Source: Escherichia coli
GTDB taxonomy: Bacteria > Pseudomonadota > Gammaproteobacteria > Enterobacterales > Enterobacteriaceae
DNA: 64,000 bases
Strand: one strand, 5' to 3'
NCBI RefSeq assembly: GCF_050320075.1
Contig: NZ_CP190019.1
Shown: positions 3,001 to 9,000 of the stretch, piece after piece
How the letters are laid out: each line of letters begins with the position of its first letter
How positions within the stretch are numbered: the stretch's first letter is position 1
Position numbers: made by a program

Positions 3001-6000
3001 TAACTGTTCATGCACCATCACCATCAACTAACTTACCAAGTTATGGCAATGGTGCATTTTCTCTTTCAGCACCGCATGTTCCTGGTGCTGGACCTCTTTT
3101 AGTCCAGGTTGTTTATAGTTTTTTCCAGAGTCCAAACATGTGTCTTCAGGCTTTAACTCAACTTGAGGATTACATCAAAAAACATGGGGCTAGCAACCCT
3201 CTCACATTGCAGATCATATCGACAAATATTGGTTACTTCTGTAACGCCGACCGAAATCTGGTTCTTCACCCTGGAATAAGCGTTTATGACGCTTACCACT
3301 TCTCAAAACCAGCGCCAAGTCAATATGACTATCGCTCAATGAATATGAAACAAATGAGCGGTAATGTCACTACACCAATTGTGGCGCTTGCTCACTATTT
3401 ATGGGGTAATGGCGCTGAAAGGAGCGTTAATATCGCCAACATTGGTCTTAAAATTTCCCCTATGAAAATTAATCAGATAAAAGACATTATAAAATCTGGT
3501 GTAGTAGGTACATTCCCTGTTTCTACAAAGTTCACACATGCCACTGGTGATTATAATGTTATTACCGGTGCATATCTTGGTAATATCACACTGAAAACAG
3601 AAGGTACTTTAACTATCTCTGCCAATGGCTCCTGGACTTACAATGGCGTTGTTCGTTCATATGATGATAAATACGATTTTAACGCCAGCACTCACCGTGG
3701 CGTCATCGGAGAGTCGCTCACAAGGCTCGGGGCGATGTTTTCTGGTAAAGAGTACCAGATACTGCTTCCTGGTGAAATTCACATTAAAGAAAGTGGTAAG
3801 CGATAATATAAGGGCCGGGATTCCGGCCTTTTTATGCAGCCTTTATAACAGTGTATTAGTCATTCGCATATTCAACATATCCCTCTTCACAATGGTACAT
3901 GCCATAATACATTCTCTTACCCTCCGGACCTTCAGCTTTAAATGGGACAAGAAGTGTTTTTTCATCTTCAACATCTGTTAAACTTCTCTCAATCTTTTCC
4001 CATGTAATTTTCGGGATTTCTGTACCAAGAAGTTGTACATCGTTGTCCCAGCGTTTCATTCTTTGCAGGTAATCATTTTTTACAAACGTTCTGGCCTGTT
4101 CATCGCTGACCTGATAGCATGCCGGACCTTTATCTTCAGACCAGAAAAAAACAGCAGCAAGAGCAATAATCGTTAAAATAAAAATAAATTTCATGCTAAT
4201 TACTTTCATAAAATCTCCACAACTTCTGTCGTTCATTCGATATAAAAAAACATTACGAATATATCCGTACAATGTGAGCATACTGTGAAGTGGCTTTAAC
4301 AATTATGAAATAATACAAGAGATCACATATTGCAGTGGTCTCTTCTTTTATAGAATAAATCACAATTCATAATTATGATTTGTGACTTATGCGTGTCTGT
4401 TTTTCAGCATTGTGACAGCATCGGACTCAGGAATCGAAAACTGCACCCGGTGCCGTGCAGCCACATCCAGCGCAAACACCTTCGTGTACACCTCTGTCGA
4501 ACTAATCGACTTGTGCCCCATCAGGCTCTGCAGCACCTTCAGCGGAATACCAGCATACAGCATATGCATCGCGTAGGAATGGCGGAAAGTATGTGGGGTA
4601 ACCGGAACAGAGAACGTCACGCCGTCGGCCGCAGCGGCCTCTACAGCTTCATTCAGCCAGGTGCGAACTGTGCGGTCGGTGATTCCCCAGATGCGCGCCT
4701 TCTCCATTCTTCCGGTTCGTTTGTTTCTGCGCTCCAGTGGGATTTTCAGCGTGGCCACCATCATCTGCAGTTGGCTGACGTATTGTGTATCGGACAGGGG
4801 AACCAGGCGATGCACCTGACTGCCAGCAGGGACACGGCCTGCCGTTCTGGTCGCTTTTTCAGTCCGTTGTTTGAGCGTGGCCAGCTGTACGAACGGATAT
4901 GGCGGCGCCAGAGAAAAATCTCCCCGCGTCAGCGCCAGCGCTTCGTTTATACGTGCGCCCGTGTTCCACAGGGTGGCCAGCAACATTTTGCGGTGCAGAT
5001 CCGGTACATAGTGGAGCAGGGCGCTGATCTCCGGCGCCAACAGATATTTTGGTAATTCGTCCTGCACAAGTGCCATCTGACGTAGTGCCAGCGCAGCCGG
5101 GTAATCAATGGCAACAGGTAATGTTGCCGGAGGCGTTAAAAAAGAACCAGGCAGGGAAAGCAATTGTGGGCCACTCATGATGTCCCCTTTATGAAATCCT
5201 CAATCTCTTGCTCGGTCTTTTTAGACTTCTTTACCATTTCGTACTCCTTTTGGAGTGTTTTACCTCTGGCTTTCAACAATACCAACCTCGTTGGCGATAG
5301 TGTATCGGAAAGGCCGTGCAGAGGGAGGCCACATAACATTCTCAGTTCTCGTGATAACCGCAGTGCTTTTACTCCCAACATAGCTGCGTTTTTATGCAAA
5401 CTATATTCACCCGCTCCACCATAAGGAGTATCTTCAACAAACACATTATCTACACACACGACAGCTTCGTAGCTGAGAACAGAGAGTTCGCTGAGCCTAT
5501 ACATCAGGCCAGAAGGAAGGGAGCGCCAGTTACCAGATACCGGGGAATAATCGATTTCCGGTAATAAGAACTCAGCTTCTCCTCTGCCATCCTGATCGTG
5601 CTCCACAGTTGCTGTTGCTGCTGGAGCGCAACGCTGCGCAAATCGCTCAAGTAAAAAAACCAGCTCTGTACTAATGTAAAGACGCTCGCTGGCCAGCTTC
5701 GCTGCTGCAGTTCTCTCCTCACGTCTGAGTGTGAAGTGGTGAGTAAGGAACACCGCTCCGACAGCAGATGCGATGGTCGATACAGCTGTAATTATCTGCG
5801 GCCCCAGACTGGCGCTGTCCTTCACCACCTTCACGCCTTCGGTCGCAATAAACCAGTCAGCCATGTTTATTCCTTTATTGTTGAGAAATCCCGCCTTCTG
5901 TATGTATTCAGCGGTCGGCAGCCAGTTCTTCAGCCAGCTTCACAAAGCCTTTGTGCTCAGTCTGCAGGTAATGGCTGTAAATCCGGGCATCACGTTCTGT

Positions 6001-9000
6001 GAGCCCGGATGGATTGCCGGTGAAGTAACGTTGCAGCACCGCAATACAGTGATTGTAGGTATCGAGATCATATTCCCAGTTTCCCAGCTCACCGGCCGCA
6101 TCCAGCTCCCGGCGAAACTGCTCGTATTTACGGAGCAGAATGCCAAGACCTAATTCTGTTGCAGCATAAACATTATTTTCTCCTGGCGCGGAAATCGCAT
6201 TACGGATTTTTTCAAAAGCATAACTGAAATCATTTCTCTCATTGAATGCAGTAAACATGTCCTTTCCTCAGTTGAATAGTTAGCCGTGCAATTTTACCAC
6301 ACCTCAATCATCGCCAGATGAGTGCCACTCTGTTGAGAACAGTGACTTTCACAAAAAATGAATTTCACATACTGAAATAATAAGTAGCCATATAGAAACG
6401 CAGTTAAATTACCGGAGAGCCGTTTCCGTCAGATCCGACTTTCCGGAATATCACAACTTTCCGGAAGTGTACCACGCTGAGAAAATAATCATATCGCTGT
6501 TTTCCGCCCCTGCGCGGCGCATCACAGGTCAGGGAGATGACACAACATATAGTGTCATGAGCAGCTGAATGAGATACCACATGTTGTGCTGACAGGAGGT
6601 GGCGTTGTGTGGGGGGAGAGGAAGATCCGTAACCAGGAGTTTTCGGATCTTCCTGAAGAAAAAGAAAGATTAATGTAAAATTAACAATAATTAACAGCCA
6701 TTGATAACTAAAACAGATTAATGCACATTAAGCATTAATCTGTTTTTATTTTTGTATTTAAGGCAATTAAAACACCGTATCAATGATGCTCAGTCATAAA
6801 ACTCAACATCACGGACATAGCGTACGGGAGTAATAACAATTTTGTGTTCATCACGCCCTGACCCCATTTTTGGCGGCTGAATAAATCCAAGATTGCTGAT
6901 TAATTCGGCCACTTCCCACAAATCCACGGAGTGAGGGATTTTCCTGAACCTGTCATGTGGTAACAGTCCATGATAGCTCTCATCAGCAAAACTGTTCAGC
7001 ACCACGCAAAGCGCGTCTTTGCCAGCATCCCCGGCAACCAGACAACGTTTAAGCAGTGTCAGGCGCAGATCATCGTCACCCATCCAGGGACTCAGTTCTG
7101 CCAGAATATCTAATGACAGCAGGTAGCTCTTATCAAGAATTCCCGGTTTGTTATCACGCAACCAGCGTAAAGCGGCAACTTTTATATTCATACCGATTAG
7201 CTTGTGACGAAAAAGTTCGCTTGCCAGTTCTTCATCAAAGTCACCCTCGATATAAAAAATATCTTCTGGCTCCTGGGTAATAATCTCAGGACGCTGGGCA
7301 ATAAGGTTACCAAGCAGAGTATTCATCCTGTTAATATCATCAACATTTCCACAGAGAGCATTAAACAACACCGTAAAGACATTAACTGTCGGTGCCAGTT
7401 TTTTCTCTGAACATAACAGTTCAGCATTTCGCAATGGAATGTTTTCAGGCACATCGATAATAACAACGTTTAAATTACTCAGTACTTTCAGTAAAGCTTC
7501 TTCTGAAATGACTGGCGAGCAAATTAATTCAGAAATAAAATTATTAAATATTCCTGTATCATTTATGACTATATCAGATGGTTCAAATTCAAAGTGTTTC
7601 TCATTTACCCACTGAACAAGTTCACCGGAAGTATTAATTGATGTATCATGCAATAAATGAATAATATTATCAAAGGATGGAAAAATCCTGTCATGCTGCA
7701 ACAGCATGCTATAGATATTTCTCCCTGAAGCATTATTGTCCGCACACTCTGAACGATTAATAATATCATCCAGATTATTTATACAAAAATCCATTTTGGC
7801 TATAATCTGTTCAACAACAGTCATTGAGACTTCAGAAGAATTCAGCAATTCAGGAATACGATCAATCTCTTCCGATTCAATAAATACCGATAAAATAAAA
7901 TCTTCTATGTTAGTCCACAGAACTTCTGTTAATTCAGAAATAGCCAGGGACTCGAGACAATGAAACGGATAAAGAGAGAATGACATTCTTTCTTCATTCT
8001 TGTCTTGCGTCAGGCAAAGATAAACATTTTTAAGATTACTGACGGAATATTTGAATAATCCTGCACCCGCAATTTTCCTGATAACAGAACACTTCTCGTC
8101 TCCCACATCACCTGGAATATATGAAACTGAAAGTGTATTATCTTTCAACACTTCAAAAAACGCATCACCATATCCTTTTGGCACAGCAGTAATAAGAATT
8201 GGGGAGGAATCTATAAGTTCACCGATACGTTTATTAATCTCAACCGATTGCCAGATATTTGATTTTTCAGTCAGGCATAACAGGTGTGCCGCTATTTCCT
8301 GAACAAAAAACTTTTGCTCGGGTGTGCGTTCTTCTGACGCACATAAATGTGCCAGCAATCTGTTCAGTATATGTTCATCTGACATAAAAATCTCCAGGTA
8401 ACGCAGGCGAACATACGTTGTGAAATCGTTCTGCATCAACATCAGCAAACTAACCACACGCTGGCTACCCGTCTGACTCAGTAATGCCATTATATTGTTT
8501 TTCAGGGTATCAGGGTCATTATCAATCAGCCATCTGATAACAGCAGGATGTTGAGCATTGTCACGCTGCAGAACCCCCAGCTTTTTGAGTCGTTCAACAA
8601 TATTATTAACGTTATCAAGATGGAATGAGAATGTTTTTTCCGGACCTTTACCAGACATAACATCCTTAAGAAATAAATTATCTGTCTCACTCAGCCCTCC
8701 GGGAATGAAGATTGAGCGATAGGACATGTAATCTGTTGATAAATAACCACTTGATAACAGAAAAAATATAAAGTCAATCTGTTCATGTTCCGACTGAATC
8801 GTCAGGACACCTGTATCCTCTTTCTTCTTTATCCAGGCAACAAAGCCTTCATTTGTCATCTTTTCTGCTATATCAGCTACAGTTCCGGAAAGAATTTCGG
8901 TCCTCAATGACTCCAGACTGGAAATATTATTTTTCACTCTGGTTATATTATCAACAGATTTAGTTTCAATTAAATGGCATCGTTTTTCATACTGCTGCTT

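Follow-up and report, generated by a model that had tools for sequence, protein, structure and literature searches.

The stretch of 64,000 nucleotides analyzed here (contig NZ_CP190019.1 of Escherichia coli; called the window, always at its full length) belongs to an IncF plasmid of the ColBM/ColV type. On its minus strand, three genes for proteins of 116, 229, and 263 amino acids (aa) follow one another downstream from a recombination site, rfsF, and from a large gene, tmn (Table 1). The 2.5 kb around these three genes are 100% identical to pL65-2 and to many more plasmids. The close packing that a preliminary description of this DNA had reported is exact: the stop codon of the 229-aa gene overlaps the start codon of the 263-aa gene in an ATGA (5175–5178), and 43 bp separate the 116-aa gene from the 229-aa gene. 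A Shine–Dalgarno-like sequence is present at each of the three starts (GAGGAAAGG, AAAGGAA, and AAAGGGGA).

Table 1. Genes and sequence elements of the locus (positions refer to the window; a dot stands for a feature without assigned strand)
Feature	Position	Strand	Remarks
116-aa soluble up-down four-helix-bundle protein	5908–6258	-	First gene of the operon (open reading frame listing)
229-aa membrane-anchored protein, PDC-S67 family	5175–5864	-	Middle gene of the operon (open reading frame listing)
resD, 263-aa tyrosine recombinase, orthologue of the F-plasmid D protein	4387–5178	-	Last gene of the operon (open reading frame listing)
Probable end of the operon, hairpin	4317–4344	.	43 bp past the resD stop; on the minus strand AAGAGACCACTGCAATATGTGATCTCTT then GTATTATTTC; from a scan for terminator-like sequences
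Leader and putative promoter region moving with the 116-aa gene	6259–6379	-	Extended -10-like TGgTAAAAT and ribosome-binding site GAGGAAAGG
Conserved flank of rfsF toward resD, with homology to the rfsF/oriV-1 region of F	6380–6622	-	Alignment with F and four plasmids; 17-locus profile
CCGGTAATTT	6406–6415		Invariant or near-invariant (17-locus profile)
AAGTCGGATCT, resembling an rfsF half-site	6431–6441		Invariant or near-invariant (17-locus profile)
GCGTGGTACACTTCCGGAAA	6458–6477		Invariant or near-invariant (17-locus profile)
TATATG, inside the ATGACAC-N8-GTGTCAT dyad	6545–6550		Invariant or near-invariant (17-locus profile)
ACATGT	6578–6585		Invariant or near-invariant (17-locus profile)
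rfsF core, 28-bp ResD recombination site	6623–6650	.	AGATCCGAAAACTCCTGGTTACGGATCT on the minus strand; inverted arms, variable center
Two rfsF arms	within 6623–6650		Invariant or near-invariant (17-locus profile)
Perfect 15-bp hairpin with T run, between tmn and rfsF	6710–6746	.	Probable tmn terminator
tmn, 1273-aa transmembrane KAP/YobI P-loop NTPase, outside the operon	6790–10611	-	PADLOC Tmn, 2057 bits, full length

By its sequence, the 263-aa protein is ResD, the orthologue of the D protein of plasmid F. In BLASTP, 220 of 244 residues (90%) are identical to F ResD (E = 1e-165), the comparator being the "site-specific integrase" gene that comes directly after ccdB on plasmid F, i.e., the gene for ResD (D protein); the first 16–20 residues differ between the two. 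The Pfam profile Phage_integrase covers residues 45–234 (1.2e-18; 67.9 bits vs. a cut-off of 27.1), and residues R76, H196, R199, H222, and Y231 align with the catalytic residues of XerD and of an XerC-like chain (the set mapped being Arg, His-x-x-Arg, His, and Tyr, with the catalytic lysine outside the mapping). The catalytic domain begins at about residue 42–45. Since residue 42 of ResD stands opposite residue 107 of XerD, the full N-terminal core-binding domain is absent, and ResD has no Xer-type core-binding (SAM-like) domain of about 100 residues.

The core of rfsF agrees without a single mismatch with the published pattern AGATCCGNAANNNNNNNNTTNCGGATCT, a fusion site of 28 bp that Xu et al. 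equate with rfsF (PMC8299605). The pattern has one match in the window, against 0.00–0.01 expected from shuffled sequences. A larger dyad holds the core, with 14-nt arms (6619–6632 and 6641–6654) that are 93% complementary; the central 8 nt of rfsF are ACTCCTGG in the window versus ACCCCAAG in F. The site recurs upstream of the homologous operon in most of 30 related loci, and its position in the window is homologous to the F site starting at F coordinate 45922, where the RepFIA block of the pEC958 paper begins. In F, the layout given in that paper is rfsF, oriV-1, ccdAB, resD (PMC4398462), and the IncR backbone has been described as carrying rfsF-resD, a site-specific recombination system (PMC9412624). 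Similarity to F and to four other plasmids sets in precisely with the left arm of the rfsF dyad and runs toward the operon; megablast matches to thousands of plasmids stop at positions 6628–6672. RecA-independent resolution or fusion at rfsF has been demonstrated for F and pOX38 only (PMC8299605); Xu et al. observed in experiments a reversible fusion between pOX38 and a Klebsiella virulence plasmid at the 28-bp site (PMC8299605).

The preliminary description had pointed to two dyads upstream of the operon, and both exist (ATGACAC-N8-GTGTCAT at 6537–6558 and the dyad with the 14-nt arms). Its proposal that the one at 6621–6654 is a target of the recombinase agrees with the presence there of the 28-bp rfsF, an exact match to the pattern (PMC8299605); its suggestion of a plasmid multimer-resolution module also stands, with a recombinase 90% identical to F ResD and a dyad that is rfsF. 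Both ResD and rfsF are identified as firmly as is possible from sequence.

As a member of the Phage_integrase family next to dyads, the protein could instead serve an integrative element as its integrase, or act as a DNA invertase on a promoter segment lying between the dyads. It is weakly similar to tyrosine-type invertase models; one homologous module is chromosomal (L007), and another (L008) has conjugative-transfer genes next to it that suggest an integrative conjugative element. However, the invertase models reach 20.7 bits versus a cut-off of 221, no attachment-site duplication occurs around the operon, and the protein is 90% identical to a characterized plasmid resolvase. With one rfsF in 64 kb, there is no invertible segment. 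Both readings were rejected on the lone rfsF site and the near-identity to the resolvase, and we regard them as scarcely credible. A phage origin, considered because of matches to PHROG families, was rejected too: in blastn (word size 11), the segment 4387–6700 has no match among 50,697 phage records.

On the resD side of rfsF, about 270 bp are conserved across 17 loci of several genera that carry different cassettes, and in F the matching sequence is the rfsF/oriV-1 region ahead of ccdA. The flank probably holds accessory or operator sites for ResD, to judge from its conservation and from published accounts of the D protein as both repressor and resolvase. In the chromosome of Atlantibacter hermannii (L007), a perfect rfsF (3401–3428) lies 3.8 kb upstream of the conserved flank (about 7211–7245), which there opens with a hybrid site, GGATCC...CGGATCT. 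What lies between (His_Phos_1 and hypothetical genes) resembles DNA captured at rfsF as an insert; this locus has resD and the membrane gene, with no recognizable small partner gene.

Closer to the operon, the conservation changes partners. The final 110–120 bp ahead of the start codon of the 116-aa gene go with that gene and not with rfsF: in the alignment, the window, L003, and L005 are alike up to the start codon, with F and L002 parting about 110 bp upstream. The leader is similar in IncR and Klebsiella plasmids but not in the version with ccdAB. A scan with consensus promoter models upstream of the 116-aa gene found no promoter-like site. At the other end of the operon, the hairpin past resD has a weak T run on the minus strand. 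The three genes would form a transcription unit apart from tmn, since the hairpin between tmn and rfsF looks like a tmn terminator.

The occupants of the slot between the rfsF region and resD were compared by tblastn and open reading frame listing over the first 30 loci, with L031–L033 added later around Tmn homologues. These genes are interchangeable among plasmids. In F and L002, the slot contains ccdA and ccdB; in L004, a plasmid of the enterohemorrhagic E. coli type, a 137-aa gene; and in L032, three unrelated genes. The 116-aa gene with a membrane protein of 229 or 247 aa is found in the window, in L003, L005, and L026 (IncR/Klebsiella), in L019 (Hafnia), and in L020 (Pantoea). In L012–L015, the 116-aa gene is followed by an unrelated 202-aa protein and, in L016–L018, a 119-aa homologue of it is followed by a 257-aa protein. 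Conversely, the membrane protein follows at least four other families of small genes (L008, L010, L021, L022, L025, L027, L029, and L030). Within the operon, it is this membrane protein that is hypervariable: between the window and the IncR version, it has 35% identity, versus 97% for the 116-aa protein and 92% for ResD, and the variable segment extends from just past the stop codon of the 116-aa gene to about codon 20 of resD.

Throughout these exchanges, resD abuts the preceding gene in each version checked: at 0 bp after ccdB in F, at 1 bp in L004, and with the ATGA overlap in the window, L003, and L005. Since the preceding genes are so varied, the tight packing is a property of resD and not a sign of cooperation with the 229-aa protein. 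What the preliminary description had called a three-gene operon with coupled last genes is a real operon, overlap included, but not an indivisible functional trio, since resD in F follows ccdAB.

Two of the slot variants deserve a few details. L012–L015 represent a very common lineage of E. coli plasmids; in 6001–7860, they have a homologue of the 116-aa protein (70% identity; indexed in 1103 collection blocks), the 202-aa open reading frame, and a frameshifted resD, with CBASS past rfsF. In L016–L018 (6414–7187; Pantoea ananatis), the 257-aa protein that stands in place of the membrane protein after the 116-aa homologue contains an RHDLVH motif (Rx4H, HEPN-like) and has a weak match to HEPN_RiboL-PSP (E = 0.0035).

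The N-terminal transmembrane helix that had been noticed in the 229-aa protein is apparent both in the hydropathy profile, where the best 19-residue Kyte–Doolittle window spans residues 24–42 (score 1.72), and in the AlphaFold model, where the helix begins at residue 20. This single hydrophobic helix covers about residues 22–42, and the N-terminal peptide MADWFIATEGVKVVKD is conserved (in its nearly invariant form, MADWFIATEGVKVV). The positive stretch after the helix suggests an N-out, C-in topology. The helical domain is modeled as a four-helix bundle with a small hairpin (predicted local distance difference test, pLDDT, of 80), and the model with that topology suggests that the bundle is cytoplasmic. 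Residues 34–210 match positions 7–186 of the 203 positions of the PADLOC profile PDC-S67 (1.2e-17), to which the IncR allele matches at 3.6e-45; the protein also matches phrog_33426. The model of the 116-aa protein is an up-down four-helix bundle (pLDDT 94.7), soluble, and the protein has a weak match to Pfam Phage_int_SAM_4 (E = 0.027).

The structural neighbors of both proteins are generic helical bundles only, and neither resembles any protein of known function in profile and structure comparisons. The pair has no sequence or fold homology to CcdAB or to other known type II toxin–antitoxin families. Clear homology of the small proteins to housekeeping genes, which would have spoken against the preliminary description, did not appear in the profile searches. 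We did not find a paper naming PDC-S67 in a full-text search of the literature, and a search with RefSeq protein accessions gave nothing.

Of 72,556 PLSDB plasmids, about 2100 have the membrane family and about 1600 the 116-aa family, with IncR and IncF plasmids from Klebsiella and E. coli among them. When 1.84 billion representative proteins were searched with a profile of the membrane family, 962 clusters came up, all of about 180–250 aa; as none is visibly longer, there is no sign of fused domains. Three distant members (E about 1e-23) have no recombinase neighbor, and each comes after a small open reading frame of 73, 123, or 155 aa (L034, 3933–8106; L036, 4542–5579; L035, 3–1104). One of these distant members adjoins a 1047-aa N6_Mtase/Methylase_S gene, and another lies between gyrB and an alpha-amylase gene.

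Could the two small proteins be accessory or regulatory factors of ResD? The membrane protein might, for example, anchor resolution to the membrane or septum or set its timing there, by analogy with the control of XerD by FtsK, and the 116-aa protein might provide in trans the core-binding domain that ResD is missing. In every intact Enterobacterales locus examined, resD comes directly after the membrane gene, down to 32% identity of the latter; to this are added the overlap of stop and start codons in the window, the mere 40 or so residues that precede the catalytic domain of ResD, and the weak Phage_int_SAM_4 match of the 116-aa protein. However, F ResD stands behind ccdAB, with neither small gene present, and the resolution of mini-F is credited to the D protein and rfsF alone (PMC5587640). 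Moreover, resD is matched by at least 5000 plasmids versus 2100 with the membrane family, the distant members of that family have no recombinase beside them, the 116-aa gene also has the unrelated 202-aa and 257-aa proteins as partners and, in structure comparison, the 116-aa protein does not supply a core-binding fold. Such a role for the two proteins is improbable in our view.

On the other side of rfsF, the KAP NTPase gene that had been placed upstream is confirmed, and it is identified as tmn. The 1273-aa protein matches Pfam YobI-ATPase (4.5e-104) and is labeled "anti-phage transmembrane ATPase" in RefSeq. Tmn has been characterized as an anti-phage system of a single gene and lacks conserved operon partners (PMC13001434). 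The three genes might still belong to, or cooperate with, Tmn as a four-gene defense unit, since tmn is on the same strand and ends 140 bp from rfsF, and the order tmn, rfsF, cassette, resD is seen again in Enterobacter cancerogenus (L023) and Pantoea agglomerans (L032). But Tmn protects when cloned alone, the published neighborhood analysis found no conserved operon (PMC13001434), and a strong hairpin separates tmn from the operon. The cassette past rfsF in L032 is unrelated; L031 and L033, both plasmids with Tmn, have neither rfsF nor resD in the flanks examined, and most resD operons have other cargo past rfsF, like CBASS or PifA. The co-occurrence of the three genes with tmn expected of a multi-gene Tmn unit is thus seen neither in L031, L032, and L033 nor in most resD operons, and we hold such a unit to be highly improbable.

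The end of tmn lies 140–160 bp from rfsF in the window, L023, and L032. In L023 (2099–6263), tmn is situated between a perfect rfsF (2099–2126) and a degenerate one (6236–6263) in direct orientation, like a captured cassette. In the window, tmn would likewise be a bracketed cassette if a second rfsF lay upstream of it, but none was found by a search of the window allowing up to three mismatches or by reading of 10560–11100. In L032 (5971–10015), Tmn shares only about 58% identity with that of the window over its N-terminal 420 residues. More generally, the side of rfsF that faces away from resD is usually occupied by anti-phage or competition cargo that varies by plasmid (L008, L010, L012–L015, L017, and L006, which is F), with CBASS (SMODS and S_4TM), Abi_2, PifC/PifA, MACPF and HNH, or colicin genes. 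Exchange of cargo mediated by rfsF was suggested previously for IncI1 (PMC8004404) and IncR (PMC9412624) plasmids. The bracketing and the recurrence of tmn fit such exchange and do not make the three genes part of Tmn.

Altogether, the locus is very probably the ResD/rfsF module of an IncF plasmid of the ColBM/ColV type, with two small genes in an exchangeable slot. ResD, little more than a catalytic domain, would act at rfsF and thereby resolve plasmid multimers; it could also reversibly fuse plasmids bearing rfsF. As the last gene in the operon, resD would lack a promoter of its own here and be translated in tight coupling with the gene ahead of it. The upstream genes fill an exchangeable cassette slot, with ccdAB in F and the 116-aa and 229-aa genes here. 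The pair is best read as a self-contained cassette that would have no need of ResD, with the 229-aa protein as a candidate effector and the 116-aa protein as its partner, and it would benefit the plasmid through the killing of plasmid-free cells, through phage defense, or both.

That the pair is a module of the toxin–antitoxin or abortive-infection kind is a tentative assignment, which we consider slightly more doubtful than probable. It is suggested, by analogy, by the position equivalent to that of ccdAB and by the order of a small gene then a larger one and, from sequence comparison, by the mixing of partners (one of them HEPN-like), the hypervariable membrane gene, and the distant relatives free of a recombinase. 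The membrane family is also a defense candidate in PADLOC. Several observations weigh on the other side. Both folds are generic helical bundles with no informative homology for a toxin, antitoxin, or defense role. The two proteins do not co-vary (the 116-aa protein being nearly identical to its IncR version and the membrane protein far from it), which is awkward for a specific toxin–antitoxin pair, unless contact occurs via the conserved N-terminal part. In some loci, the membrane gene has no recognizable small partner (L007), and its constant place next to resD in the intact Enterobacterales loci could mean a functional tie. Finally, the PDC-S67 flag may reflect hitch-hiking beside defense cargo at rfsF. 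The wider proposal, that the pair is a new membrane-acting addiction or abortive-infection module, one among several interchangeable cassettes of the resD operon, and that ResD/rfsF, besides resolving multimers, is a platform for the swapping of stability and anti-phage cargo by Enterobacterales plasmids, seems to us rather unlikely.

Past the end of the operon, the plasmid carries IS1 (about 40–689), which cuts off the colicin V precursor gene cvaC (700–903, 67 aa left); after cvaC come cvi (881–1117), cbi (within 2220–2798), cma (2991–3806), and cmi (within 3856–4302), with a YebF-like Pfam match at the cmi locus. Far from there, the segment 32001–34000 stands out from the rest of the window by its strong AT skew (0.199) and unusually high G+C content (0.654).

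The core system, ResD with rfsF, is already known and is textbook F-plasmid biology. The interest that remains is in the two widespread small genes and in rfsF as a landmark of defense cargo. If the small genes stabilize plasmids or block phages, they would bear on the persistence of resistance and virulence plasmids. As a boundary at which defense genes vary by plasmid, rfsF could be a cheap landmark for new defense cargo; serine recombinases were proposed as markers of such cargo in a recent preprint (PMC12632615).

In comparison with ResD/rfsF of F (RepFIA), the recombinase is 90% identical, the 28-bp architecture of rfsF and the conserved flank are the same, resD stands last in its operon, tightly coupled, and a phage-exclusion gene of the KAP family lies past rfsF (pifA in F vs. 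tmn here; PMC13001434). Unlike in F, ccdAB is replaced by the unrelated 116-aa and 229-aa genes, and there are no RepFIA replication genes within the annotated 12 kb on either side in the identical pL65-2. The rfsF-resD module of IncR/IncFIB(K) plasmids (for example, pST1023 and pK245-type plasmids) has the same order of rfsF, 116-aa gene, membrane protein, and resD, with 116-aa and ResD proteins 97% and 92% identical to those of the window, but its membrane protein has 247 aa and is 35% identical over residues 24–181. With PDC-S67, the 229-aa protein shares the fit to the profile, but this is a candidate family only, and the proximity to defense genes may stem from rfsF. With XerCD and dif/cer, the locus has in common a tyrosine recombinase, a 28-bp core with inverted arms and a short center, a long stretch of conservation that flanks the core on one side, and a role in plasmid stability. 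In contrast to XerCD, ResD is single, plasmid-encoded, and devoid of the N-terminal core-binding domain, nothing in this analysis ties it to host accessory proteins or FtsK, and the arms of rfsF are near-perfect inverted repeats.

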